Source of the DNA: Armatimonadota bacterium
GTDB lineage: Bacteria; Armatimonadota; UBA5829; DTLH01
Direction of reading: 5' to 3'
Length of the DNA stretch: 64,000 bases
NCBI GenBank assembly: GCA_039680575.1
Contig: JBDKSP010000089.1
Span: 1-64,000, forward strand
Both the position numbers and the translations under genes were made by a program. Shown in pieces: positions 40,180 to 54,033 of this stretch. Under the pieces are notes generated by a model that was not told the DNA's origin, made no database searches, and saw only the letters and a program-made list of their open reading frames with translations. The stretch's first letter is position 1. Each line of letters begins with the position of its first letter.

Positions 40180-40530
40180 TTAAGGCGTAAGTGTGACTGC
40201 TGCTTCCGATTCATCCTCGAACAGGGGGAATACTTTCTCCAAGCCTGTGATCTCGAAGACTTTACGGATCTGGTTGGAACTGCACACTACTGCGATCTTG
40301 CCGCCGCTCTCGCTGGCTCGCTTAAGACCTCCCACCAGTGTTCCCAGACCGGAACTGTCGATATATTCTACCCCAGCCATGCTGACTACGACACTCGGAT
40401 GACCTTGCTCGATGACATCTATCATCGTATCTCTGAACTGGGCACAAGTGTAAGAATCTAGTTCGCCAACTAGCTCGATGATGGGGATGTCCTTCACCAT
40501 TTTCGTCCTGATTCGCAAATCCATTTCCAT
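40180..40530 (-). CDS. STAS-domain anti-sigma-factor antagonist (RsbV/SpoIIAA-like)
   Basis: GELD, YIDSSGLG.LV, VFEITGL; AAGGAG RBS. Confidence 0.93.
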   Translation of the reverse strand: MEMDLRIRTKMVKDIPIIELVGELDSYTCAQFRDTMIDVIEQGHPSVVVSMAGVEYIDSSGLGTLVGGLKRASESGGKIAVVCSSNQIRKVFEITGLEKVFPLFEDESEAAVTLTP

Positions 40531-40651
40531 TATTCTGGCACTCCTTCTCCAGCAGGTAACGCGGACGTGTCGAGCGGCCGTCTGCGGGCTTGACTGCAAT
40601 GCTCACGAAGGTATCAGGTTGTGGGGCGATGTGGAACTGTCGCCACCAACT

Positions 40652-40718
40652 GAGTTTCAGTGTTCCTCAAACCTGAAACCCTTTCTTGAGATTCCCGGCT
40701 GTTGCTGAAAATCTATAA
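40652..40718 (-). repeat. Family A two-hairpin element (minus strand)
   Basis: Reverse complement: TTATAGATTTTCAGC aaca GCCGGGAATC TCAAGAAA GGGTTTCAGG...ACTGAAACTC. Confidence 0.7.
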
Positions 40719-40845
40719 TTACTTATTCCTTGGGACAGTCCAAATCGAAACATGACATCATCGGCATCGTCTCGTCGGAGGAAGTTTATCATTTACGCAG
40801 GACAATGTCAACTGTACCCGCTCGCCAGAATCTGGTTACGAATGG

Positions 40846-41436
40846 TCAGGAGTGCTTACGAGGAAGGAACGGTGGCCTCAGCCGGTTTGTGTTTGCAGCG
40901 CTTTCGGCAACGGATTGCAGAGTTATCTCTGTAACATACCACTGGTTCACTACCGGCAAATCCAGTTGTTTCAATCTTATAAGCATAGCCGGTCTGGACA
41001 CATAAAACCTATCGGACAGAACGGACAGCCGCCAGTCAGGGTCGTCCTCCAAGGAATCATACATTTTGACGACCAACGGCTCGGGCATCAGGAGGCACGC
41101 GGCAAATTTCGACGCATACCGTTCTTCCTCATCCTCATCAACCTCAGCTTCTCGCATAAGGAGCCGCATTGAAGGCCGTGCTGAGTTTATGACGTGATGT
41201 CCCAGCTCATGAGCTATTGAAAACTGCCTTCTCCTGGGTGAATCGAGTGAGTTTACCACGATCTCGGTCCTGCCGCTCGGCAGCGTCAGATAGAACGCGG
41301 AAACCTCGTCACCCAAAGGCCGGCGTATCAAGTTTATATTGTAGTAATTGCAAACGGCGCTGACATCACAGGGAATGGTAAGGCCGAGTTGCTTCCATAT
41401 CCGGGCTGATTGATCCTCCAGCAAGTCATCGATCAT
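40846..41436 (-). CDS. ImmA/IrrE family metallo-endopeptidase
   Basis: RRRQFSIAHELGH, EE.YASKFAACLLMP, F.VS..A..IRL. Confidence 0.92.
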   Translation of the reverse strand: MIDDLLEDQSARIWKQLGLTIPCDVSAVCNYYNINLIRRPLGDEVSAFYLTLPSGRTEIVVNSLDSPRRRQFSIAHELGHHVINSARPSMRLLMREAEVDEDEEERYASKFAACLLMPEPLVVKMYDSLEDDPDWRLSVLSDRFYVSRPAMLIRLKQLDLPVVNQWYVTEITLQSVAESAANTNRLRPPFLPRKHS

Positions 41437-41782
41437 GTCCGGAGTTCCTGTCTATCTCGAGCCTTTCTCTGACCACTTCTTCTATAATCCTTCTGGACTC
41501 GTCCGATAGAGTATCGTTTCGCCTAAGCGCTATCCGCACTACTTCGATAACATCCTTTGGCTGCATATAACCGGCAGCGATCATAAGCGGCTCTACGGAT
41601 GTCTTGTAGCCTTTTGCAAATTTTTCTACAATTTCGCGAGACGGTACTTTTCCGCCTTTCATTGCATGGAGGTAAGCCTGGCTTATACCGGTCTTTATCG
41701 TGGCTTTACCGTAGCTGTCCTCCCCCATTATCTCCTTGACTATACGTCCAAAGTCTTCGCTTACACGGGTCTCAACTGGCAT
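41426..41782 (-). CDS. XRE-family HTH repressor
   Basis: TGISQAYL..M..GKVPS...VEKFA......L..AAGY; overlaps the ImmA start. Confidence 0.8.
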   Translation of the reverse strand: MPVETRVSEDFGRIVKEIMGEDSYGKATIKTGISQAYLHAMKGGKVPSREIVEKFAKGYKTSVEPLMIAAGYMQPKDVIEVVRIALRRNDTLSDESRRIIEEVVRERLEIDRNSGHDR

Positions 41783-41919
41783 TGTTCACCTCACTACAAA
41801 GGGTAGCATACGAACACAAATATTTCCAAAAGTTCTTTATCGAAAGCCTTTACAACGTAGCGAAGAACGTTTAAAATCAACATGGCACACGTCGTTCACT
41901 ATGAAGAGAATAATGTCTT

Positions 41920-42372
41920 ATGTCAGATAATCCCCTTATGGATAACACTGAATATGGATTACCAGCCGGCCAATCGCAGGTTGACTTCCGCTTTAACGCA
42001 ACTGCGCAAGCGGCAGCACAGATCCGCAGGCAATTCAAGCATATACTCGATACCTGGTGCCCGGACTGCGGTGCCGCCGGGAATGAACTGCTGCTGGCTG
42101 TCGGCGAAGCAGTGAGCAACGCTTGTCGCCACGGCTGCGACGGCAAGCCTTTACCTGTCCACCTCAGCGTATCCTGGGATGCAAATACCCGGGAAGTGAC
42201 CGTGGAAGTGTGCGACCCCGGCTCAGGGTTTGATTATCCCCTGTTTATACGCCGGACGCACTCCGATAAAGACTACTCATGCGGCCTCTTCCTGATGGTC
42301 AACAGCGCAGACAGCGTAAGTTATGAGCGCCGGGACAATTCCTTCGTCTGCACGATCAAAAAACGGCTCTGA
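41920..42372 (+). CDS. RsbW/SpoIIAB-like anti-sigma factor (HATPase_c_2)
   Basis: LAVGEAVSNA..HG, V.DPGSGFD, GLFLM...D.VSY. Confidence 0.85.
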   Translation: MSDNPLMDNTEYGLPAGQSQVDFRFNATAQAAAQIRRQFKHILDTWCPDCGAAGNELLLAVGEAVSNACRHGCDGKPLPVHLSVSWDANTREVTVEVCDPGSGFDYPLFIRRTHSDKDYSCGLFLMVNSADSVSYERRDNSFVCTIKKRL

Positions 42373-42879: not shown

Positions 42880-44433
42880 ATGTTTCTTACAACTGCTGAA
42901 CAGATGAGAGAGCTGGACCGGCGGGCAAGCCGGGAATTCGGAGTACCAAGCATCGTTCTGATGGAAAACGCCGGGCTTCGGACCTTCGATGTCGTCTACG
43001 GTATGCTGGAGGAGATCGAAGGCCACAGGGTTGCCGTCGTCTGCGGACGAGGGAACAACGGCGGTGACGGTTTTGTCGTCACTCGCCATCTTCATCAGGT
43101 CGGCGTGGAAGTCGAAATCTTCCTCATCGGCCGTATAGAGGATGCCAAAGGCGATGCCGCAATAAATTTGAACATAGCCGGGAAGTCCGGTATACCCATA
43201 ACCGAAGTTACGGATATAAACGCGCTTAAATCTGCGCTCGTGCACTCGGATTTGATAGTCGATGCGATCTTCGGAACGGGAATCAAGGGTGAGATCACCG
43301 GACTTGCAGGCGAGGCGATAGACGCGATCAACGACTCAGGTTCGCCGGTCGTCTCAGTCGATCTTCCATCGGGGCTGGATGCCGATACTGGACAGGTTTC
43401 CGAAAGATGCGTGCGAGCCGATGCGACCGTCACGTTCGCGCTGCCGAAGATCGGACTTGCGACCTATCCTGGAGCCTCCTGCGCAGGCGAAGTCACCGTA
43501 GCGGACATAGGGATTCCCGATCTTGCGTTCGAGACGGCGGGCATCGATACTTTCGTCACCGATGCCGATGATGTAAGAGTCCGGCTTCCTGAGCGTCCCG
43601 ATGATGCCAACAAAGGTACTTTCGGGCGCGCGGCGATCATAGCAGGGTCGGTAGGGATGACCGGCGCGGCAGCGATGGCCGGGATGGCAGCGGTAAGGAT
43701 CGGCGCGGGGCTCGTCACACTCGGTATACCTGAGAGTCTGAACGATATACTGGAAGTCAAAGTCACGGAAGTTATGACTCTCCCGATGCCTGAAACAAAA
43801 GACCGGAGTTTTTCGCTGTCTGCTGTCGATAAAGCGCTCGAACTCATCCAAAAATGTGATGCCGTGGCTATCGGGCCCGGAATCGGCAGAAATCCTGAGA
43901 CTGCGGCCTTCATTCACGAGCTTCTGCCAAAAATCGAGACGCCGGTGGTAATAGACGCGGATGGGCTTAACGCCGTATCTGAGAATGTAGAGTTGTTCAA
44001 GAGCCTTAAAGCTCCGGCGATTATCACCCCCCACCCCGGCGAGATGTCGCGGCTTACAGGAACTCCCGTTGAGGCTATCCAGTCTAACAGACTGGAGGCC
44101 GCGAAAGACGCAGCCGCGAGGTTCGGAGTCACGGTCGTCCTGAAGGGCGCGGCGACAGTCACGGCTTCGCCCAGCGGAGAGGCCTGGGTCAACTCGACAG
44201 GCAGCGTGGCGCTGGCATCCGGCGGGACGGGAGATATTTTGACCGGAACGATCACCGGGCTGCTTGCACAGGGACTCGAGCCGCTTGACGCGGCGGTTTG
44301 CGGCGTATACATACATGGAAAAGCCGGAGAAATGGCTGCCGAAGAGATCGGCAAATCCGGCGCGGCGGCAACCGATCTGCTTCCACTGCTGCCGCTCGCG
44401 CTTGGTATTATAGATTTTCGGCTGATTAATTAA
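42880..44433 (+). CDS. nnr: Bifunctional NAD(P)H-hydrate epimerase/dehydratase
   Basis: LMENAG, CGRGNNGGDG, DAIFGTG, DLPSG, KGTFG, IDADGLN, TPHPGE, GGTGD. Confidence 0.95.
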   Translation: MFLTTAEQMRELDRRASREFGVPSIVLMENAGLRTFDVVYGMLEEIEGHRVAVVCGRGNNGGDGFVVTRHLHQVGVEVEIFLIGRIEDAKGDAAINLNIAGKSGIPITEVTDINALKSALVHSDLIVDAIFGTGIKGEITGLAGEAIDAINDSGSPVVSVDLPSGLDADTGQVSERCVRADATVTFALPKIGLATYPGASCAGEVTVADIGIPDLAFETAGIDTFVTDADDVRVRLPERPDDANKGTFGRAAIIAGSVGMTGAAAMAGMAAVRIGAGLVTLGIPESLNDILEVKVTEVMTLPMPETKDRSFSLSAVDKALELIQKCDAVAIGPGIGRNPETAAFIHELLPKIETPVVIDADGLNAVSENVELFKSLKAPAIITPHPGEMSRLTGTPVEAIQSNRLEAAKDAAARFGVTVVLKGAATVTASPSGEAWVNSTGSVALASGGTGDILTGTITGLLAQGLEPLDAAVCGVYIHGKAGEMAAEEIGKSGAAATDLLPLLPLALGIIDFRLIN

Positions 44434-44675: not shown

Positions 44676-45989
44676 ATGCTTCGAAAAACAACAGTTCTGC
44701 AATTATTCATGCTATTCACATTGATCTTTGCGATTTCCGCTGCCACATGGGCTGATCCCAAGGTGCAGGTGAGCTTCCCGGAGAAGGGCGGCTACCTCTA
44801 CTGGCTCGAATACAAGGGCGCTGACGGCAAACAGATAATAACGGCTCCAAAGCACGCAGCCGGATCGGGAACATCCGTCGATCTCGCTCCTGCCGCACCG
44901 GGAGGAAAGCTCGGCGAAGGGACATTTAAAGTCTACGATGATAAGTCCGGCAACGTCGCGGCGAAAAACATCCAGAACCTCAAAGGCAAAACGGACCTCA
45001 AGCTCAAAACAAACGATTTTACGCTTATCAGAACACTGAAGATCGTCCTGAAACCAGCCGATGGCAAGGATAATGAGCGGATCGAGTCGGCTATCGTAAC
45101 ACTGACGGATGCCAATTCCGACACCTTCACCACGATTGTCGACCCGGCGAGCGAAGGTGTCGCGGAGTTTCACGATATTGCAGGTGGAGCTGTAAGCATA
45201 ATTGTCCAATCAGAGGGGAAAAAGATGTCCCTCGACCTGGACATGCCCCTCGATCGGGATACTGCTGTGCATACCGAGGATTTGACGGTGTCGTTCAAGA
45301 CTCGGACAGTTAATGCGTCGGTTACAGCCGGTTCGAAGGTATCGGCGGATGACGAAGAAGGCGGAAAGAAGCCTGCCGCATCGAAAGAGCAGAAGGCACA
45401 ACCCGGAACCGGTATACTGCAATACATTATGGGTATTGCAGTCCTTGTGATGATCGGGTTCATCGGCTATGTAGTCCTGAAAAGCAAGGGTCTAAACGCT
45501 GACAACCTGAGGAAGCTCGGAGTACAGCTCCCGCAGGGTGATGATACGGCAGTGAACGTGCCTGGAACGGCTCAGGAGCCACAGATCGACCCGAATGTGT
45601 GCCAGTTCTGCGGGCAGCGCAAAGACCCGGCGACCGGAAACTGCGCATGCAGTGTCAGCAGCCCGGCTGCAGGGCAGGCGCCTTCCGCCACTGCCGGGAT
45701 ACCGAGGCTGATTGGGACCCAGGGGCAGTATTCGGGACACATTTTCGAGCTAACGGGAGCTGAGGCCACGATAGGGCGTGACCCCGGCAATACCATCCCT
45801 CTGGTCGAGGACAGCACATCGTCCCGCAGGCACGCGAGGTTCGGGCAGGAAAACGGCGCGTATTTCGTAATGGACGAAGGCAGCTCGAACGGAACGTTCG
45901 TAAACGGGATGAAGATTACTGGACGCCACCCGCTTCATACCGGCGATGAAGTCCAAATCGGCGGCACGAAATTCAGGTTTGAGGCGTAG
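44676..45989 (+). CDS. Single-pass membrane protein: extracytoplasmic beta-rich domain, TM, Cys motif, C-terminal FHA
   Basis: Signal peptide; CQFC..CAC; IGRD...SRRHA...SSNGTFVNG; AAGGAG RBS. Confidence 0.88.
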   Translation: MLRKTTVLQLFMLFTLIFAISAATWADPKVQVSFPEKGGYLYWLEYKGADGKQIITAPKHAAGSGTSVDLAPAAPGGKLGEGTFKVYDDKSGNVAAKNIQNLKGKTDLKLKTNDFTLIRTLKIVLKPADGKDNERIESAIVTLTDANSDTFTTIVDPASEGVAEFHDIAGGAVSIIVQSEGKKMSLDLDMPLDRDTAVHTEDLTVSFKTRTVNASVTAGSKVSADDEEGGKKPAASKEQKAQPGTGILQYIMGIAVLVMIGFIGYVVLKSKGLNADNLRKLGVQLPQGDDTAVNVPGTAQEPQIDPNVCQFCGQRKDPATGNCACSVSSPAAGQAPSATAGIPRLIGTQGQYSGHIFELTGAEATIGRDPGNTIPLVEDSTSSRRHARFGQENGAYFVMDEGSSNGTFVNGMKITGRHPLHTGDEVQIGGTKFRFEA

Positions 45990-46092
45990 GGAAAGATTGT
46001 GGAGACTTGAATGTATCCTGTGACTCATTAGTTCAGGGTAACTTACTTCTGTTCCCTACTGATTACTGACGGCTGAAAGCTGATAGCAAAAA

Positions 46093-47598
46093 ATGGCAAG
46101 AGTTACTAAATATCTTTTACTTGCAGCGATAGGCGGATTTCTGGCTTGGGTGATACTTGAACCGATCAATTCGCTCACGCCTTACGTGCCTCCAGGGCAG
46201 GATGCGCCCGACATGACATTTGGGCAGATGATGGCAATAGGCGCCATCTTTGGAATGTTCCTTGGTCTGTTTCTCGGCCTGGCTGAGGCATTTTCCGGCG
46301 TCTCGCCAAGAGATGCGGTAAAAAGTGTTGTTGTAGGCATCGGAGTCGGCATACTCGGTGGAATGATCGGGATTACTCTAGGCAATTCTCTGATCTATAA
46401 ACCGCTCCTCCGGTTGTCGTACGTCTTCCGCAGCGGTGAGATAATGAACCCTCTACAGTTTGTGATCCTACTGGTCGCTCGCTCTGCAGGATGGGCGATG
46501 ATCGGTCTGTTGGCCGGACTCGCTCAGGGAATTTCTACACAGTCCAGCCAGAAGATGACTAACGGAGCTGTCGGTGGAATAATCGGTGGATTTGCCGGAG
46601 GAATGGCATTTGAGCTTCTCGTCCATTTCGGTGTACCTCCAGAGATGCTTAGAATGGTCGGTTTTACAACCACGGCAGCGGCGATAGGGCTTTTCATCGG
46701 GTTCATAGAAGAAGTCCGAAAGAAAGCCTGGATCGTGCACCTCAAGGGACGGAACGAAGGCAGGGAATTTTCGATTTTCAAGCCGGAGACAATCGCCGGA
46801 CGCGATGAACTGGTGGATATCCCGATCTTCGGCGACCCGGACGTCGAGCCCAGGCACTTCGCCATAAAGGCGGATCAAAACAGATACGTCCTTTTGGATA
46901 TGAACACCACGGCAGGCACATCCGTAAACGGTCAAAAAGTCCAGAAACAGACATTGAGAGACGGAGACATCATCCAGGTCGGTATGACCCGGCTTTTATT
47001 CAGAGATAAGGCAACGCGGTCGTTTACATCCAGACCGGTCGATCCGTACAGCGCGACCGGGACAAGCATACCGACATCCGAGCACATCTGCCCGTTCTGC
47101 GGCGGAATCAAGGACGCAGCCGGTAACTGCTCCTGTTCGGCAGGTGTCCAAGCACCGGGACAGCAGGTTCAGAACCAGACCATGCAGCAGACGGTTGTAT
47201 CGCAGCCGAACCAGACTGTGCAAACGACCCAGGCGATGAGCAACCCGTTCTCAGGAGCGCCTGTCGATCCGTTTGCAGGCGCTCCGCTCTCGAACACTCC
47301 CGGAACCGGAGCGAGGCTCGTCGCGGCATACGGGCCGTATACGGGGCAGGTGTACAACCTGAACCCTGCCGGTGAGACTACTATCGGGCGGCAGTCCGAC
47401 CAGATGATCTCTCTGTCGAACGATAATACAGTCTCTAGACAGCATGCAAAAGTGGCAAATGAGAGCGGACAATTCGTCTTATATGATTGCGGAAGCGCGA
47501 ACGGCACTCATGTGAACAATACCAGGATCACCCGCCACGTTCTGACACCCGGCGACCTGGTGCAGATAGGAAGTACAAAATTCAAATTTGAAGGGTGA
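46093..47598 (+). CDS. Polytopic membrane protein with two FHA domains
   Basis: About 6 Gly-rich TMs; GRD..RHF..GTSVNG; CPFC..CSC; IGRQ..VSRQHA..SANGTHVN. Confidence 0.88.
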   Translation: MARVTKYLLLAAIGGFLAWVILEPINSLTPYVPPGQDAPDMTFGQMMAIGAIFGMFLGLFLGLAEAFSGVSPRDAVKSVVVGIGVGILGGMIGITLGNSLIYKPLLRLSYVFRSGEIMNPLQFVILLVARSAGWAMIGLLAGLAQGISTQSSQKMTNGAVGGIIGGFAGGMAFELLVHFGVPPEMLRMVGFTTTAAAIGLFIGFIEEVRKKAWIVHLKGRNEGREFSIFKPETIAGRDELVDIPIFGDPDVEPRHFAIKADQNRYVLLDMNTTAGTSVNGQKVQKQTLRDGDIIQVGMTRLLFRDKATRSFTSRPVDPYSATGTSIPTSEHICPFCGGIKDAAGNCSCSAGVQAPGQQVQNQTMQQTVVSQPNQTVQTTQAMSNPFSGAPVDPFAGAPLSNTPGTGARLVAAYGPYTGQVYNLNPAGETTIGRQSDQMISLSNDNTVSRQHAKVANESGQFVLYDCGSANGTHVNNTRITRHVLTPGDLVQIGSTKFKFEG

Positions 47599-47702
47599 AG
47601 GTTTTTATCACGAAAGCAGAAAAAGGGAATAGTGGATGTCGTGTTTCATTATTTCGTGATTATTAACCTTCCAGAACAATCACCTTTAAAGGACAAACGA
47701 CT

Positions 47703-49100
47703 ATGGACAGCACGCAGATGATGCCTCCGTTCGATAACGAGCGGACACAGATCGGAAACTTTGGACAGAACAACGATCCGGGAAAAACACAGATGTCCAG
47801 CCCATTCGACCCCGGCAGAACACAAATGCCCGGACCGTTCGATCCTGGCAGGACACAGATGGCAGGCCCGCCCGAGAAATCAATCCGGCTGGAATGCACT
47901 GCCGGAAACCGCTTCGCGCTCTCGACCCGAAGCTCCAGGGAACACGTTCTGGTCAGCCTGTTCTCCAGCGGCGTGATAGGTGGCGCACGAATGCCGCTCA
48001 ACCTCTGTCTCATCATCGACCGCAGCGGATCGATGGAGGGAGAGCCGCTCGAGTATGTCAAACGCGCATGCGGCTACGTAGTAGACCTGCTTGAACCGAA
48101 CGATGTTCTCTCTGTAGTCGCATTCGAGGAACGGGTCGAGGTCATCATGCCCGCAAGACGTGTGGTCAACAAAGCACTCATAAAGGAACATATCAACCGG
48201 CTCGAACCGGGAAATACCACGAATGTTTATGACGGCATCGCAGCCGGGGCAAGCCAGATCGCAAGCGTTTACTCCAAGAGCTATGTCAACCGCGCGCTAC
48301 TCTTCACCGACGGCGACCCTACAGCAGGAATCAAGGACTTCAGCTCGATAGTCGGAATGGTCGGCGAGCAAAAGAGCCGGGGGATCACAATAACGGCACT
48401 TGGGTTCGGAAACGAGTATAATGAGGAGCTTTTAGCCGGGATCGCTCGAAAATCCGGCGGGAACTATTACTACATAACGCGGCCTGAGCTCATCCCTGAG
48501 GTATTCAGAAAAGAGCTCGAAACGCTGATGACGGTCGTCGCCCGCAATATAAGGCTCACATTCAACCTGTCCAAATGGGTGCAGGTCCGGCAGATTTATG
48601 GACATCTACCGGCATTCGGCAACCGGACCGCCGAAACAACACTTACGGACCTCGAACGGGGCAGCGCATCGAGCGCTATAGTTGAGGTCGAGCTGGGCCC
48701 CAGGCCGGCAGGGACCTATAGGATAGGCAAGGTCGAGATCAATTACGACGACTCCTCCACCGGCAGGGCTGAGAGGTTGATAGAAGATGTCGTGATGGAG
48801 TTTACGCCGGACGAGAACCTGGTCGCTGCAAACATCAACCCCAAAGTCCAGTGCGAGATAGAGGTCGCGCTTGCATCCAAACAACTCGAACGGACGGTTA
48901 TGGGGATGAGGACGCAGCAGATCTCACCCGCCGCTGCCATGCAGGAACTGGAAAAGACCCGCATGATGCTCGTCCAACAGGGCAAGACTCTGCAGGCACA
49001 GGAAATTGAGCAGGCTATGGACAGCATAAAGAAAGGCGCGGGGGTCGAAAAGACACTCGTCGGAACGATCTATAACCTCGACAGAGGGGGGAGCAAGTGA
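47703..49100 (+). CDS. vWA domain protein with N-terminal TQM repeats
   Basis: MIDAS DRSGSM, T, TDG; repeats DPG(K/R)TQM. Confidence 0.9.
   Translation: MDSTQMMPPFDNERTQIGNFGQNNDPGKTQMSSPFDPGRTQMPGPFDPGRTQMAGPPEKSIRLECTAGNRFALSTRSSREHVLVSLFSSGVIGGARMPLNLCLIIDRSGSMEGEPLEYVKRACGYVVDLLEPNDVLSVVAFEERVEVIMPARRVVNKALIKEHINRLEPGNTTNVYDGIAAGASQIASVYSKSYVNRALLFTDGDPTAGIKDFSSIVGMVGEQKSRGITITALGFGNEYNEELLAGIARKSGGNYYYITRPELIPEVFRKELETLMTVVARNIRLTFNLSKWVQVRQIYGHLPAFGNRTAETTLTDLERGSASSAIVEVELGPRPAGTYRIGKVEINYDDSSTGRAERLIEDVVMEFTPDENLVAANINPKVQCEIEVALASKQLERTVMGMRTQQISPAAAMQELEKTRMMLVQQGKTLQAQEIEQAMDSIKKGAGVEKTLVGTIYNLDRGGSK
47775..47870 (+). repeat. 33-bp coding tandem repeat (DPGxTQMxxPF, about 3 copies)
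   Basis: gatccgggaaaaacacagatg / gaccccggcagaacacaaatg / gatcctggcaggacacagatg at 33-nt spacing. Confidence 0.85.
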
Positions 49101-50161
49101 TGGAAAACGGGATTGAAAAGACTCAACTCGCAAACGGCAACGCGACACAGATGATCCCGACGCAGGGTGCGGAAGCCACCCGGATGGGGATGAGCATCAC
49201 CTGCCCGGTCTGCCATTCGACTACCCCCGAAGGAGAGAAATACTGCTCCGACTGCGGGTTCCTGCTCTCTTCTCAGCCGGTAGAGACTGCCGATATGCCC
49301 GAACCGCCCGCGCTTCCCAGGATCATCGACCCGACGAGCGGGCGCGAATCTCTCCTGAACCCCGGCGAAAACACCATCGGCAGGGAGAATTCGGACGTAC
49401 TCGTCTCCCACCCCACCGCGTCACGCAGGCATGCGAAGCTCACGGTTTCGGATGGTAAATATATATTGGAAGACCTCGGAAGCACGAACGGGACTTATGT
49501 CGGAAACAGGAAAGTCGAGCCAGGGCAGCCGGTCGAGATAAAACCGGGAGATGAGATCAGGTTCGGCTCCGCTGTTATGAGGCTTGAGGAACCTGCTTCG
49601 GAAGCTGTAATTGCCGCCGAAGAGGCTGTGCGCGAGGTTGAGGAAGCCGAGGAGCGCGAAGAGCTTGCTGAAGAGTCGGTCGAAGTCGAACAGGCAGCCG
49701 AACAACCTGCTCCGCCGTCAGTCGAAGAGGAAAACGAAGAGCATGAGGAGTCTCACGAGGCTGTCGAAGCAGTAATGAAGATAGAACCGGGCGTGGAGTC
49801 CGGGTTCGAAGCAACTCCTGAACAGGCACTCGAAGAGCCGGTGCAGCCTGTGGAGATTCATGAAGAGCTGCCGGCGCTCGCGAGGCTCGTTCCGAAAGCC
49901 GGAGGAGATGAACTCCTTGTAAAACAGGGCGAAAACACTGTCGGCAGGAGACCGGCAAACGATATCGTGATCGCCGACCCTTACATATCGGGAAGCCATG
50001 CCGTAATCAGCGCATCGGACGGCAGCTTCTCGGTCACGGACACCGGCAGCACCAATGGGACATCCGTTAACGGAGAGAGACTGTCACCAAACGAGCCTCA
50101 CGCACTCACGGACGGCGACGAGGTAACGTTCGGACAGGACTCGTTCAGGTTCACTGTATGA
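49097..50161 (+). CDS. Zinc ribbon plus two FHA domains with acidic linker
   Basis: CPVC..CSDCG; IGRE..SRRHA..STNGT; VGRR..SGSHA..STNGT. Confidence 0.9.
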   Translation: MMENGIEKTQLANGNATQMIPTQGAEATRMGMSITCPVCHSTTPEGEKYCSDCGFLLSSQPVETADMPEPPALPRIIDPTSGRESLLNPGENTIGRENSDVLVSHPTASRRHAKLTVSDGKYILEDLGSTNGTYVGNRKVEPGQPVEIKPGDEIRFGSAVMRLEEPASEAVIAAEEAVREVEEAEEREELAEESVEVEQAAEQPAPPSVEEENEEHEESHEAVEAVMKIEPGVESGFEATPEQALEEPVQPVEIHEELPALARLVPKAGGDELLVKQGENTVGRRPANDIVIADPYISGSHAVISASDGSFSVTDTGSTNGTSVNGERLSPNEPHALTDGDEVTFGQDSFRFTV

Positions 50162-50853
50162 TATGTTCCAAATGCGGCGCGGAGAATGATTCCAGCGCTG
50201 AAAAATGCAGGCAATGCGCGTGGTCATTGAAATCGCGGCTCGTCGTAGATGAACAGATCTGCGCGAACCATCCCCGGCGGATGGCTGTAAGCACGTGTCA
50301 CTCCTGCGGGCTGGAGCTTTGCGAAGAGTGCGAAGTCTTCATCGGGGATGTTTCATACTGCAGGGAATGCGCCGAACGGCCTGGAGAAGAGGAACTCCTC
50401 CGGGATGTGCCTGTGGTCGATCCGGCTCAGGCAGAGCCTGCCGGTTTCTGGATCAGAACCCTTGCGGGGGCTGTGGACCTGATAATCCTCGGCTGCGCAT
50501 TTTCCGTGCTCTGGACGGCGTTCTGGCTGCTATTCGGCGACCCGACCGTCCCCTTGCGCCTGGGAGACCATCCATGGGCTCATGTGCTGTTCTGGGTGAT
50601 TGTGGGCGTAACAATACCTGTCTACTACATCTACAGTATTGCAACAAACTCACAGACACCGGGGATGTCGGCTTTCGATATTGCCGTCGTGCGCAGCGGA
50701 GGAGAAGCTGCCGATTATCGCACGGCAATTCTTCGTTATATGGCGGTATTTCCGGCTATAGTATCGATATTCGGTATATTCTGGTGCATCTGGGACAAAA
50801 ATGGCAGGATGCTTCACGACAGGCTGACCAAAACGAGTGTAGTTAGGATGTAA
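50158..50853 (+). CDS. Zinc ribbon/B-box-like plus RDD membrane protein
   Basis: CSKC..CRQC; CANHP..CHSC..CEEC..CREC; AGFWIR..A..D, QTPG, LHDRL..T.V. Confidence 0.88.
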   Translation: MICSKCGAENDSSAEKCRQCAWSLKSRLVVDEQICANHPRRMAVSTCHSCGLELCEECEVFIGDVSYCRECAERPGEEELLRDVPVVDPAQAEPAGFWIRTLAGAVDLIILGCAFSVLWTAFWLLFGDPTVPLRLGDHPWAHVLFWVIVGVTIPVYYIYSIATNSQTPGMSAFDIAVVRSGGEAADYRTAILRYMAVFPAIVSIFGIFWCIWDKNGRMLHDRLTKTSVVRM

Positions 50854-50857
50854 TGAT

Positions 50858-51808
50858 ATGGATCAAGAAAACGTAATCCCAGTAGCGGACGATGTCGAGG
50901 TAACTGCGGAACTCAACACCGGTGAACTTGAAGCTGAGTGGGAAAAGCTCGCTGAACGCGCGAAACACATCCACCCAGTCATCAAAATGGGCGCCCGTAC
51001 GGACCTCGGGCGGGTTAGGGAGAATAACGAAGACAAATTCGATTTCTTCGAGCCCGAAGATGCCGGTCTGCTCGCCCAAAAGGGGTCGTATTACGCAGTC
51101 GCCGATGGTATGGGAGGACATGCAGCCGGTCAGATAGCAAGCGAGATGGCGCAGAAGACCGTCATAAAGTCTTATTACGCCGATCCGTCTCCCGATGTCC
51201 ATGGAAGCCTGATACGCGCCGTATTTGAAGCAAACAGCCTTATATTCGATGCAGCGCAGATGATCGTCGAGCGCTCCGGGATGGGAACTACCCTCACCGC
51301 GGTCATAATCCGGGGTGACACGGCCTATTTCGCACAGGTCGGCGACAGTAGAGGCTATCTGATCCGTAATGGCGCTATCAGACAGGTGACTGAAGACCAT
51401 TCCTGGGTCGCGGAACAGGTCAGGCGCGGCGCTATGTCCGAAGAGGAGGCTAAATATTCGCCGTTCAGGAACGTCATTACCCGATCACTCGGGAATCTGC
51501 CGACCGTAGATGCTGATATTTATGCTGAAGACCTTCAGCTGGGGGATATGATCGTCCTCTGCTCGGATGGGCTCTCGGGAAATCTGTCGGCTGATGATAT
51601 ACTGAACATAGTATCCGGCAAGAGTCCCTCACAGGCAGCCGTCGACCTGGTCGATGCAGCTAATGAAAGAGGCGGCTCGGACAATATAACCAACATAGTC
51701 CTTGCAATCAGGGATATAGTATATGAGGAGGGTCAGACTCCTCCAGAAAGAGAACTAAACGATCAGGAAACACCGCGAAAGCGAGGGTTTCTCGGGATTT
51801 TTAGATAA
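50858..51808 (+). CDS. PP2C/PPM Ser/Thr phosphatase (Stp1/PstP type)
   Basis: TDLGRVRENNED, VADGMGGH..G, VGDSR.Y, LCSDGL, GG.DNIT. Confidence 0.95.
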   Translation: MDQENVIPVADDVEVTAELNTGELEAEWEKLAERAKHIHPVIKMGARTDLGRVRENNEDKFDFFEPEDAGLLAQKGSYYAVADGMGGHAAGQIASEMAQKTVIKSYYADPSPDVHGSLIRAVFEANSLIFDAAQMIVERSGMGTTLTAVIIRGDTAYFAQVGDSRGYLIRNGAIRQVTEDHSWVAEQVRRGAMSEEEAKYSPFRNVITRSLGNLPTVDADIYAEDLQLGDMIVLCSDGLSGNLSADDILNIVSGKSPSQAAVDLVDAANERGGSDNITNIVLAIRDIVYEEGQTPPERELNDQETPRKRGFLGIFR

Positions 51809-51836
51809 ATTAGGATTGAATCCTGAATCCTAACCT

Positions 51837-53516
51837 ATGTCATCGACCAATACGCTTGGAAAATATGAAATATTAAGGGAGATTGCCAGGAGCAACGACA
51901 TCGTCTACGAGGCGATGGACCCGACACTGGGGCGGCACGTTGCGTTGAAAGAGTTGTACCTGCCCGGCAATCTCACGGGAGCGCAGAAACGCGAGCGGAT
52001 CGAACGTTTCCTGCGCGAAGGCAAGGCTGCTGCTCGTCTGGAACATCCAAACATCGTTACTGTCTATGATGTCGGACAGGAAGGCGACCGGTTTTACATC
52101 GCGATGGAACTCCTGGGGGGACAGACTCTTCGGGAAGTGATCCAGATGCGGGGCGCTCTTCCTGTCAAGGAAGCTGTCGATATCGCGCTTCAGCTCTGCA
52201 ACGCGCTTGCCTGGGCACATCAGAACAATGTAGTCCACCGGGACGTCAAGCCGGAAAACGTCCAGATACTCCCCGGCGGGCACGTTAAACTGACCGATTT
52301 CGGGATCGCGAGGATCATGTCCGAGCCGTCCATTACGGTCGATGGACAGGTCTTCGGCACTCCAAGCTATATGTCGCCGGAACAGGTGTCCGGAAAGCAG
52401 ATAGACGGCAGGTCCGATATTTTCGCGCTTGGTGTCGTGCTCTACGAGATGCTCGCCGGACAAAAACCATTTTCCGGGGATACGGTTGTCACCATCACCT
52501 ACAATATTATGAACTCGGAACCGGCGGCACCACCCGGCATGCCGCCTTACCTTGTCGGCATTGTGCGAAAAGCGATGGCCAAAGACCCGAATATGCGGTT
52601 CCAGACGATAGAGGAGATGGCAAATGAGCTGAAAAACGAGCCGCCGTACGGCGGTGTCCCTTATGCGGACCCGTTCGGTACAGCCGCTCCGCATAACACG
52701 GTCCCGCCGTACGGCGGACAGATGCCGGGGGGTTACAGTGCGCCTCCGACAACCTATGCGCCTCCGCCTTATGCACCCGGTCCATCGGCTGCGCCTGACC
52801 CGTTTGCTCATGTACCTCCGACACAGGCAGCGCCTCTCCCGGCGCCTATACCCAGAAGGCCGATGCTGTCCGCTGAGACTCGCGCATTTCTCGGCGCGCT
52901 GACGCTTACTATCGGTATAGTCGGGATGCTGTTCTTCGCAGCCTGGGCGGTGATAGAAGCCTATAGCGCCTATAGCGAGCGTACTACGACCGACATCGTG
53001 ACGAAGTACATAAACCAGGGTGACCGGCTGTTAAGAGACGGCAAAGCCGATGCGGCCATGACCCAATACGCAAACGCTCGAAGAGTCGCGGGCTCCACCA
53101 AAGCCGGCGCAAAAGCGCGGAGAAGGCTCGCCGAAGTCTATGTCCGGCTCGCGGGAGATGCGCTCAAAAACGGAGCGTATACAGTGGTAAAAAACAATGC
53201 AGTATTGGCGGTGGATGCCGACACGACATACTCCGGCGGACACTACTACCTTGGGCTGGCCTACCATTACATCCGGGATGAAGCTTATGACGCTGAACTC
53301 AGAAAAGCCATCGAAACGGGCGGCAACGATGATTTCGCTCAATCCGCCAGAAAGATGCTCTGCAGTTATTATATAGCTCAGGGTGATGCTCTTCGAAACG
53401 TGGGGAACAACGCGGGCGCTAAGGAATGGTACCAAAAGGTGCTCAACGACCAAATGCTCTATGACCCTGAGATCGAACAGCAGGTGCAGGACCGGTTGCT
53501 TTCGGTGAGCCAGTGA
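51837..53516 (+). CDS. Hanks-type Ser/Thr kinase with Pro-rich linker, TM and TPR-like tail
   Basis: VALK, HRDVKPEN, DFG, GTPSYMSPE, SDIFALG. Confidence 0.94.
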   Translation: MSSTNTLGKYEILREIARSNDIVYEAMDPTLGRHVALKELYLPGNLTGAQKRERIERFLREGKAAARLEHPNIVTVYDVGQEGDRFYIAMELLGGQTLREVIQMRGALPVKEAVDIALQLCNALAWAHQNNVVHRDVKPENVQILPGGHVKLTDFGIARIMSEPSITVDGQVFGTPSYMSPEQVSGKQIDGRSDIFALGVVLYEMLAGQKPFSGDTVVTITYNIMNSEPAAPPGMPPYLVGIVRKAMAKDPNMRFQTIEEMANELKNEPPYGGVPYADPFGTAAPHNTVPPYGGQMPGGYSAPPTTYAPPPYAPGPSAAPDPFAHVPPTQAAPLPAPIPRRPMLSAETRAFLGALTLTIGIVGMLFFAAWAVIEAYSAYSERTTTDIVTKYINQGDRLLRDGKADAAMTQYANARRVAGSTKAGAKARRRLAEVYVRLAGDALKNGAYTVVKNNAVLAVDADTTYSGGHYYLGLAYHYIRDEAYDAELRKAIETGGNDDFAQSARKMLCSYYIAQGDALRNVGNNAGAKEWYQKVLNDQMLYDPEIEQQVQDRLLSVSQ

Positions 53517-53634: not shown

Positions 53635-54033
53635 GTGGAAATGCAAGGTGAAAACAAAACAAGCGGGCAGCTTGTCAGGCTGAGACAGATCGATTACGAG
53701 ACTGAACCCGGGCAGCCCGACCTGCTGGGTTGGGAAGTAGCCGATTCGGACAACAACCTGATCGGAAAACTTGACGATATGCTGGTTGATACAGACACCG
53801 GAGAGATCCTGTTTGGTTCAGTGTGTTATAACGACAGATGCATAGTAGTGCCGCTTGAGCTGATGTTTATGGATGAAGCAAATAAACAGCTTGTCCTGCC
53901 CGTCAGTGTGGATGAACTGGTAGATGCCCCGGAATTCACAGAAGAAACAGAAGACATGCAGCCGCATATAAGATTCTGGACGCAACTGGTCTCCGACTGG
54001 GAAGAAGAACCGGTCGAAGACGAGGAATCCTGA
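53635..54033 (+). CDS. PRC-barrel domain protein
   Basis: DLLGWEV.D.D...IGK.DD.LVD..TG.I, VP, DAPEF. Confidence 0.85.
   Translation: MEMQGENKTSGQLVRLRQIDYETEPGQPDLLGWEVADSDNNLIGKLDDMLVDTDTGEILFGSVCYNDRCIVVPLELMFMDEANKQLVLPVSVDELVDAPEFTEETEDMQPHIRFWTQLVSDWEEEPVEDEES

Follow-up and report, generated by a model that had tools for sequence, protein, structure and literature searches.

A Probable ArnA-ArnB-Like Phosphothreonine Switch Encoded by a Seven-Gene Locus of an Armatimonadota Bacterium

1. The Locus and Its Genes

The genes described here, g1 to g7, form a candidate phosphothreonine (pThr) signalling system of an Armatimonadota bacterium. They lie on contig JBDKSP010000089.1 (C89) of the GenBank assembly GCA_039680575.1, a genome of 2.97 Mb that is 96.8% complete, within a stretch of 64,000 nucleotides analysed as a whole (the window). 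The seven open reading frames (ORFs) occupy positions 44676-53516 in one orientation (+), separated from g1 to g7 by 103, 104, -4, -4, 4 and 28 nt. Pfam and NCBIfam searches assign to them, in order, FHA, FHA+FHA, vWA, Zn-ribbon+FHA+FHA, Zn-ribbon+B-box-like+RDD, PP2C and Pkinase domains. Hydropathy analysis finds a signal-peptide-like segment and one transmembrane (TM) segment in g1, several TM segments in g2, three in the RDD protein and one in the kinase. These results agree with an original prediction made from the sequence alone, which had described seven co-oriented genes, the later ones overlapping or tightly spaced, and the same domain content (FHA, MIDAS vWA, RDD with a Zn finger, PP2C and a kinase with a TM segment). 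Conservation was assessed in orthologue alignments of g1 (n = 29), g2 (n = 34), g3 (n = 44), g4 (n = 37), the PP2C phosphatase (n = 24) and the kinase (n = 29). The 44 g3 sequences are picks from 74 loci plus the window copy, with truncated and some near-duplicate rows excluded.

2. The ArnB-Fold Hub and Its ArnA-Like Adaptor

At the centre of the locus lies g3 (47703..49100, +), whose product combines a split beta-sandwich, a vWA domain with a MIDAS (metal ion-dependent adhesion site) and a C-terminal helical bundle, as delineated by AlphaFold2 (AF2), Foldseek, VIA and a profile search. The AF2 model, built on the alignment of 44 orthologues, has a predicted local distance difference test score (pLDDT) of 83, with low confidence over the first 55 residues, and its topology runs from beta-sandwich through vWA to helical bundle. 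The best Foldseek match is ArnB in the ArnAB complex (8S05, E 5e-26), with Sec23/24 next in the list. The best PDB profile match is again 8s05_A (E 1e-15), in an alignment that extends into the bundle. In VIA, residues 59-463 of the model superpose on residues 2-382 of 8s05_A with a Z score of 35.4 and a root-mean-square deviation of 3.1 over 372 aligned residues, a Z score tied by the actinobacterial (Catenulispora) structure 4FX5. The MIDAS residues D106, S108, S110, T172/T173 and D203 are kept in 44/44 orthologues. The predicted structure thus identifies g3 as a hub of the ArnB fold.

The next gene, g4 (49097..50161, +), encodes an ArnA-like adaptor, recognised from its domains, its alignment and a complex model. 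It opens with a tail rich in Thr motifs (49100-49198, +), continues with a CxxC-x10-CxxC Zn ribbon (49202-49255, +) and ends in two canonical FHA domains (49373-49567 and 49937-50134, +) joined by an acidic linker. The Cys spacing of the ribbon is identical to that of ArnA and is found in 32/37 orthologues. When residues 55-465 of g3 were modelled together with residues 26-66 of g4, the complex reached a score of 0.69 (best control, 0.00), with at least 95% contact agreement among runs and a partner pLDDT of at least 77; the mark set for this score is reached by 116/157 solved and 2/215 mismatched pairs, rates that are only rough with custom alignments. The ribbon docks in the model by its second hairpin, as in ArnA, against g3 residues 74, 290-292, 334-342, 362 and 364, among which R340 (44/44), G337 (41/44) and Y/F339 (44/44) are conserved. 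Modelling therefore supports binding of the g4 Zn ribbon to the g3 hub.

In two natural fusions (P0037, P0056), an ArnB-type vWA domain is joined to a pair of FHA domains and the CxxC ribbon is missing, which is consistent with a ribbon that serves as a tether and becomes needless once the proteins are fused. The CxxC-x10-CxxC pattern occurs in 16 ORFs of the genome and is hence non-specific. Its presence on a PP2C of another locus (L059:12201-13115; the pattern occurs in 2/54 PP2C ORFs, and a similar ribbon in L070) and at the start of the RDD protein g5 (50158-50217) suggests a common docking tag. Further variants were recorded around these two proteins. In five loci (L063, L068, L082, L087 and L092), g4 carries an additional N-terminal segment that we take to be J-domain-like, with no visible HPD motif in the alignment. 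A sister subfamily of ArnB-type proteins (P0012, P0017, P0020, P0037 and P0056; L120 and L121) bears D/E-A-T-hydrophobic repeats in the N-terminal tail, and in L121 the vWA gene of this subfamily is followed by a gene for a Zn ribbon and FHA. A metagenome search with P0012 returned 11 loci, mostly ordinary copies of the present operon; gene parsing succeeded for all but four.

3. Threonine Motifs in the Tails

The N-terminal tail of g3 (47703..47867, +), modelled with low confidence and probably disordered, contains four [RK]-T-Q-[MI] repeats centred on T15, T29, T40 and T51, beneath which the DNA forms a tandem array with a period of 33 (47786-47861). Across the 44 hub orthologues, 94 of 205 tail threonines stand in the context [RK]-T-x-hydrophobic, against 3.2 +/- 1.7 in 1000 shuffles. 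At least one such motif is present in 37/44 tails and at least two in 28/44, and Ser in the same tails follows no such pattern (11/91). The helical bundle of g3 offers three more candidate sites of the form [RKQ]-T (T398, T419 and T451; 48840..49085, +), each a Thr in 44/44 sequences. The 37 adaptor tails show a related enrichment, with T-x-hydrophobic at 80 of 200 threonines (shuffles, 43.6 +/- 5.4).

The phosphatase carries a motif of another kind. The N-terminal tail of g6 contains E-x-T-x-x-[LF] at T16 (50897-50914, +), a residue invariant in 24/24 orthologues amid a variable tail. The broader pattern [ED]-x-T-x-x-hydrophobic is found in 23/24 PP2C tails, with a shuffle mean of 2.7 and a maximum of 8.

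4. Kinase and Phosphatase

The last gene, g7 (51837..53516, +), encodes a Hanks kinase followed by a Pro-rich linker, a TM segment (residues 355-373) and an extracytoplasmic tail. The original prediction had called this tail TPR-like; a PilW (TPR-type) model does match it, as the sole match and weakly (E 0.005). The catalytic and activation residues K38, E61, D136 (of HRD), K138, N141, D154 (of DFG), T167 and T175 are invariant in 29/29 kinases. The canonical Gly-rich loop of kinases reads GxGxxG. In g7 its place is taken by I[AG]RSND[IV]V (51882-51908, +), with S19-N20-D21 in 29/29 sequences. The preceding gene g6 (50858..51808, +) encodes a PP2C phosphatase that scores above the Stp1_PP2C cut-off and keeps the acidic catalytic residues E58, D59, D83, D237 and D275 in 24/24 orthologues. 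As read from the alignments, the active-site residues of both enzymes are intact, save for the kinase P-loop. In five loci (L054:8574-9242, L058, L072, L077 and L104), a gene for a Tpt1/KptA RNA 2'-phosphotransferase lies between the two.

5. The FHA Set and the Membrane Readers

A genome-wide Pfam search for FHA domains returns five matches, every one of them inside the cluster. Five FHA readers had been proposed from the sequence: five domains do exist, but only four are canonical. The FHA domain of g1, the second of g2 and both of g4 carry G-R, S-x-x-H and N-G in all orthologues (29/29, 34/34, 37/37 and 37/37, respectively). In the other FHA of g2, the first, G-R and the His are retained, but neither the Ser of S-x-x-H nor N-G appears in the aligned columns of 34 orthologues; lacking these residues, it is probably no pThr reader.

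Two of the FHA proteins are predicted to reside in the membrane. The g1 product (44676..45989, +) has a signal-peptide-like N-terminus, a predicted extracytoplasmic domain, one TM segment, a Cys motif on the cytoplasmic side and a canonical FHA domain (45768-45962) with G-R, S-R-x-H and N-G in 29/29 sequences. Its extracytoplasmic domain resembles CarboxypepD_reg with an atlas score of 0.87, below 0.9 and hence a lead only. The four-Cys motif, CxxCG..C-x-C (45600..45650, +), is kept in 17/29 g1 orthologues. It occurs in 4/2595 ORFs of the genome, g1 and g2 among them, and precedes the last FHA domain in both. The g2 product (46093..47598, +) consists of a Gly-rich six-helix membrane domain (46093-46728), the degenerate FHA (46792-46983), the Cys motif (47089-47136; in 23/34 orthologues), a Thr/Gln-rich linker and the canonical FHA (47377-47571).

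In the AF2 prediction, the membrane domain of g2 has six helices (pLDDT 92.7). Its top fold matches (Z 6.0-7.8) include chains of mitochondrial complex I and TIM22/TIM23, and its best PDB profile match is NDUA11 (E 0.002), all of which we take to point to the Tim17 family. A reciprocal search with PF02466 gave no match in the present genome (G000) or at any listed g2 position of the 201 genomes surveyed. Foldseek found nothing at E <= 0.001, and an atlas search gave only leads below 0.9. The Pfam matches of the domain are confined to glycine-zipper families, in 8 and 5 of the 34 members, and bacterial glycine zippers are known to produce Tim17-type matches (PMC5072337). The likeness is therefore likely to be glycine-zipper convergence, and a bacterial relative of the Tim17 family is a highly improbable identity for this domain. 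Elsewhere, a g2-like TM+FHA paralogue lies within a prokaryotic ubiquitin-like operon comprising ThiF/E1, two JAB, five Prok-RING and an E2-like gene (G013, L110:1831-10476), and the protein P0208 fuses a g2-like part to UQ_con.

6. Conservation and Co-Inheritance

The neighbourhood survey covered 74 loci around vWA homologues, in which members were detected by phmmer with the window domains, a procedure that diverged copies can escape. Where the downstream sequence extends for at least 3 kb, the Zn-ribbon/FHA gene and PP2C follow vWA in 49/58 loci; where it extends for at least 7 kb, the kinase is found downstream in 34/49. The RDD gene follows vWA in only 7/58. Six genes, RDD aside, occur together in 14/41 loci and all seven in 4/41, and several lineages have the cluster divided, among them two genomes (G036, G038) in which it lies in two separate pieces, g1-g2-vWA and g4-PP2C-kinase. 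The survey of gene order proposed with the original prediction thus finds that the adaptor, the phosphatase and the kinase keep company with vWA, but the full set is rare, and the description of a self-contained seven-gene operon was overstated.

Co-inheritance was examined in an even set of 201 genomes of the phylum, each at least 90% complete, with thresholds of E <= 1e-60 for the hub and E <= 1e-78 for the kinase. The hub is present in 122 genomes and the kinase in 120: both in 119, hub only in 3, kinase only in 1 and neither in 78. This co-occurrence extends to single-contig genomes in which hub and kinase are widely separated (G200, G158, G166 and G060). Three genomes of the same order (G011, G014 and G024) have no hub, no strong g4 match and no operon-type g2, G014 giving a weak g2-like match only (6.5e-28); the kinases of these three and of G131 and G220 score merely 5e-21 to 5e-42. 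Genes resembling g2, paralogues included, occur in 138/201 genomes. From the locus and genome counts, the core consists of hub, adaptor, PP2C and kinase, with g1 and g2 as frequent partners and RDD as an accessory, and this core is co-inherited. In one 60% complete assembly (G035:C3:456860-461066) the operon is broken over several frames, through sequencing error or decay.

The accessory g5 (50158..50853, +), classified as such from Pfam/NCBIfam domains and neighbourhood counts, is a membrane protein with a Zn ribbon, a B-box-like domain and RDD. Upstream of g1, a domain scan identifies a YjeF/Nnr NAD(P)HX repair gene (42880..44433, +) with a homologue in 30/74 loci, some contigs ending early upstream; it is probably a conserved neighbour outside the circuit. 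Other neighbours are a PRC-barrel gene 3' of the kinase (53635-54033), retained in the three closest loci only, a Peptidase_M78 (IrrE/ImmA-like) gene with an adjoining helix-turn-helix gene (40846-41782, -), and, near the latter pair, an anti-sigma-type HATPase_c_2 gene with an ORF labelled STAS-like by eye (40180-42372). Scans of the DNA for promoters (5, against 6.3 in shuffles) and terminators (7, against 10.5) yielded nothing above shuffle level.

7. Comparison with Known Systems

The closest likeness is to ArnA-ArnB of Sulfolobus acidocaldarius, which works with the kinase ArnC and the phosphatase PP2A (PDB 8S05; PMC12852372, PMC6509490). According to the available text of PMC12852372, the Zn finger of ArnA (C21, C24, C35, C38) holds unphosphorylated ArnB loosely, and phosphorylation of Thr in the ArnB bundle brings about a switch to tight FHA binding. 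As far as these sources describe it, ArnAB shares with the present locus a three-domain MIDAS vWA hub with a Thr-bearing bundle, a Hanks kinase and an adjoining partner with a CxxC-x10-CxxC Zn ribbon and FHA, including the modelled tether of ribbon to hub. The present system differs in being bacterial, with about 18% identity and no archaellum, and its ribbon site matches only in part. Beyond what ArnAB has, it carries Thr repeats in the tails of both hub and adaptor, a second FHA domain and two membrane FHA proteins. Its kinase is encoded in the operon and has a TM segment and a non-glycine P-loop, and its phosphatase is a PP2C with a Thr motif of its own, not PP2A. The archaellum-repression role of ArnAB has no counterpart here: the host is a bacterium, and 37/122 hub-bearing genomes give no flagellin match. 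We conclude that the system, which has the structural hallmarks of ArnAB, probably works like it and is no archaellum regulator.

Among bacteria, the nearest precedents in the texts available are two. The Deinococcus radiodurans operon DRA0331-DRA0334 (bioRxiv 10.64898/2026.01.23.701218) likewise contains a vWA protein, a membrane Ser/Thr kinase, an FHA protein, PP2C and a degenerate FHA, a likeness of composition only. It differs in its degenerate FHA, which is fused to the phosphatase, its one reader protein and its gene order; the available part of that report describes neither Thr-repeat tails nor a comparison with ArnB. The Esr pathway of Actinomycetota (PMC13622651) also has a surface sensor, a vWA protein, a kinase, a phosphatase, an FHA protein and Thr phosphorylation. 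It requires, in the text available, MoxR, a beta-propeller sensor, a transglutaminase and an Esx link, none of which is found in the present cluster. A literature search found no published account of such a system in Armatimonadota among its top-ranked results, in which subscription journals are thinly covered.

The locus had originally been framed as a TerY-phosphorylation (TerY-P) triad, and the order vWA, PP2C, Ser/Thr kinase is indeed the same (PMC11090510, in part). In that account, which cites Anantharaman 2012, the kinases of TerY-P systems have a Zn ribbon or an OB-fold at their end and are found alongside genes for restriction or tellurite. The present kinase, in contrast, ends in a TM segment and a TPR-like tail without CxxC-x10-CxxC, the vWA protein is of the three-domain ArnB type, and FHA readers are central. 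Since neither a Zn ribbon nor an OB-fold is fused to the C-terminus of its kinase, the feature by which the available text of PMC11090510 defines these systems, we do not regard it as a TerY-P triad. No TerY-named NCBIfam model matches g3, and its ArnB-type fold suits an ArnAB switch better than a TerY triad. Type VI secretion systems (T6SS) can be under the control of a PpkA/PppA/Fha set. Whole-genome searches gave 0 matches to VipB of T6SS and 0 to WXG100 of type VII secretion systems (T7SS/Esx), in keeping with the earlier remark that no such genes lie nearby.

8. Proposed Mechanism and Alternatives

We consider it probable that the locus encodes a dedicated ArnA-ArnB-like pThr assembly switch, extended across the membrane. 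This retains the essence of the original prediction, a dedicated circuit of writer, eraser and readers probably built on pThr-FHA contacts, to which the conservation of TQM-type motifs beyond shuffles, the co-inheritance of the core and the missing T6SS/T7SS genes lend weight. In the following scheme we infer the phosphorylation, the FHA contacts, the signal and the output. At rest, g4 would be loosely held on g3 via its Zn ribbon. An extracytoplasmic cue, sensed by the TPR-like tail of the kinase and perhaps by g1, would turn the kinase on via T167 of the activation loop. The kinase would then phosphorylate the T-Q-M repeats in the tails of g3 and g4 as well as the Thr residues of the g3 bundle. 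Through multivalent pThr-FHA binding, g3 and g4 could become locked to the two readers in the membrane, g1 and g2, as one membrane-tethered assembly. Finally, PP2C, recruited through the pThr of its own N-terminal tail, would reset the switch. Because the operon encodes no recognised DNA-binding domain, the output that we favour is a post-translational one at the cell envelope, at rather less than an even chance. Envelope stress, defence and cell contact, the purposes put forward with the original prediction, are candidates only.

Several observations weigh against this scheme. According to the available text of PMC12852372, the ArnB fold occurs widely, for the most part without multiple phosphorylation; the same source names bacterial ArnB-fold proteins, holds multi-site phosphorylation to be largely particular to ArnAB and calls the downstream mechanism of ArnAB unresolved. 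Only at the beta1-beta2 loop do the modelled hub contacts coincide with the published ArnB site, the alpha5 linker lying outside them, and the g3-g4 complex score may stem from resemblance to the solved structure 8S05. The [RK]-T-x-hydrophobic motif is missing from 7/44 hub tails, a few orthologues being nearly repeat-free, and the shuffles disregard kinship among orthologues that are not independent. A ranking of the 2595 genome ORFs by clustered motifs, which speaks for the scheme in that it places g3 first and g4 second, is partly circular because the patterns were defined after the tails had been inspected. The pair g1+g2 lies upstream of vWA in just 37/58 loci, and in one family having the core in 13/13 genomes g2-like genes occur in 6/13. 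The co-occurrence cut-offs were self-chosen, related genomes are not independent, and the absences mostly concern whole families. Lastly, kinase activity of g7 is not assured, given that the GxGxxG loop is missing in all 29 aligned sequences.

The last point opens the way to a variant in which the scaffold is the same, g7 is a pseudokinase or a weak scaffold kinase, and the marks come from a housekeeping PASTA kinase (PknB-like), which would link the system to cell-wall status. The Pkinase cut-off is passed by two kinases of the genome, g7 and one PASTA kinase encoded elsewhere, so that the latter, as the sole other Hanks kinase above the Pfam cut-off, could be the writer. The invariant catalytic residues and both invariant activation-segment threonines of g7, together with its almost strict co-inheritance with the hub, make this variant unlikely.

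About equally unlikely is a module akin to TerY-P or Esr that serves defence or the sensing of threats such as phage, epibionts or toxic metals. The combination of vWA, PP2C and kinase is common to TerY-P and that of vWA, kinase, phosphatase and FHA to Esr. Variability is greatest in the extracytoplasmic parts of g1 and g7, and PD-T4-6 kinase models give a score with the kinase domain, which could be true of any Hanks kinase. The system is, however, nearly always single-copy and clade-wide, a distribution that speaks against a mobile island for defence, and it usually follows the housekeeping nnr gene (30 loci). The recurring neighbours included no recognised gene for MoxR, a nuclease or ter (the one MoxR of the genome lies on contig C21), and PADLOC gives no match for g1-g5, its matches being to models of kinases and to a single weak one of PP2C. 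This single-copy pattern and position, the missing MoxR and Esx genes in the cluster and the PADLOC result tell against a defence role, as do the zero WXG100 count genome-wide and the C-terminus of the kinase.

A regulator of motility or surface appendages, on the analogy of ArnAB and the archaellum, is very unlikely, since the flagellin encoded by the present genome and the joint absence of hub and flagellin in G011, G014 and G131 are set against a weak association overall (both 85, hub only 37, flagellin only 33, neither 46), an anti-association with Tad RcpC at clade level (both 23, hub only 99, RcpC only 60, neither 19) and a PilM so near-universal (199/201 genomes) as to be uninformative on type IV pili. 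As outputs, flagella, Tad pili, T6SS and Esx receive no support from profiles or whole-genome searches.

The ArnA-ArnB-like switch could also be taken further, to a bacterial membrane-spanning system on an ArnAB/Sec23-24 core. In it, a kinase with a remodelled P-loop would place pThr repeats in tandem on disordered tails. Four FHA domains would read two motif classes ([RK]-T-Q-M of hub and adaptor, E-x-T-x-x-L of the phosphatase), giving a reversible multivalent coat- or condensate-like assembly at the membrane, in which Zn ribbons would act as docking tags that can replace one another. In its most daring form, the membrane domain of g2 would moreover be a bacterial relative of the Tim17 family, by itself highly improbable. 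We hold this fuller version to be speculative and rather doubtful as a whole.

9. Significance

The system is assembled from known parts. What the locus offers is a candidate for a complete bacterial version of ArnAB, in which writer, eraser, readers and predicted target residues can all be named, in about 60% of the sampled members of a phylum that has been little studied. It makes testable which Thr residues are phosphorylated, how FHA domains and motifs pair and whether a kinase can be active when its Gly-rich loop is missing. It has a bearing, too, on the age of the vWA/Zn-ribbon/FHA switch that is akin to the Sec23/24 core.

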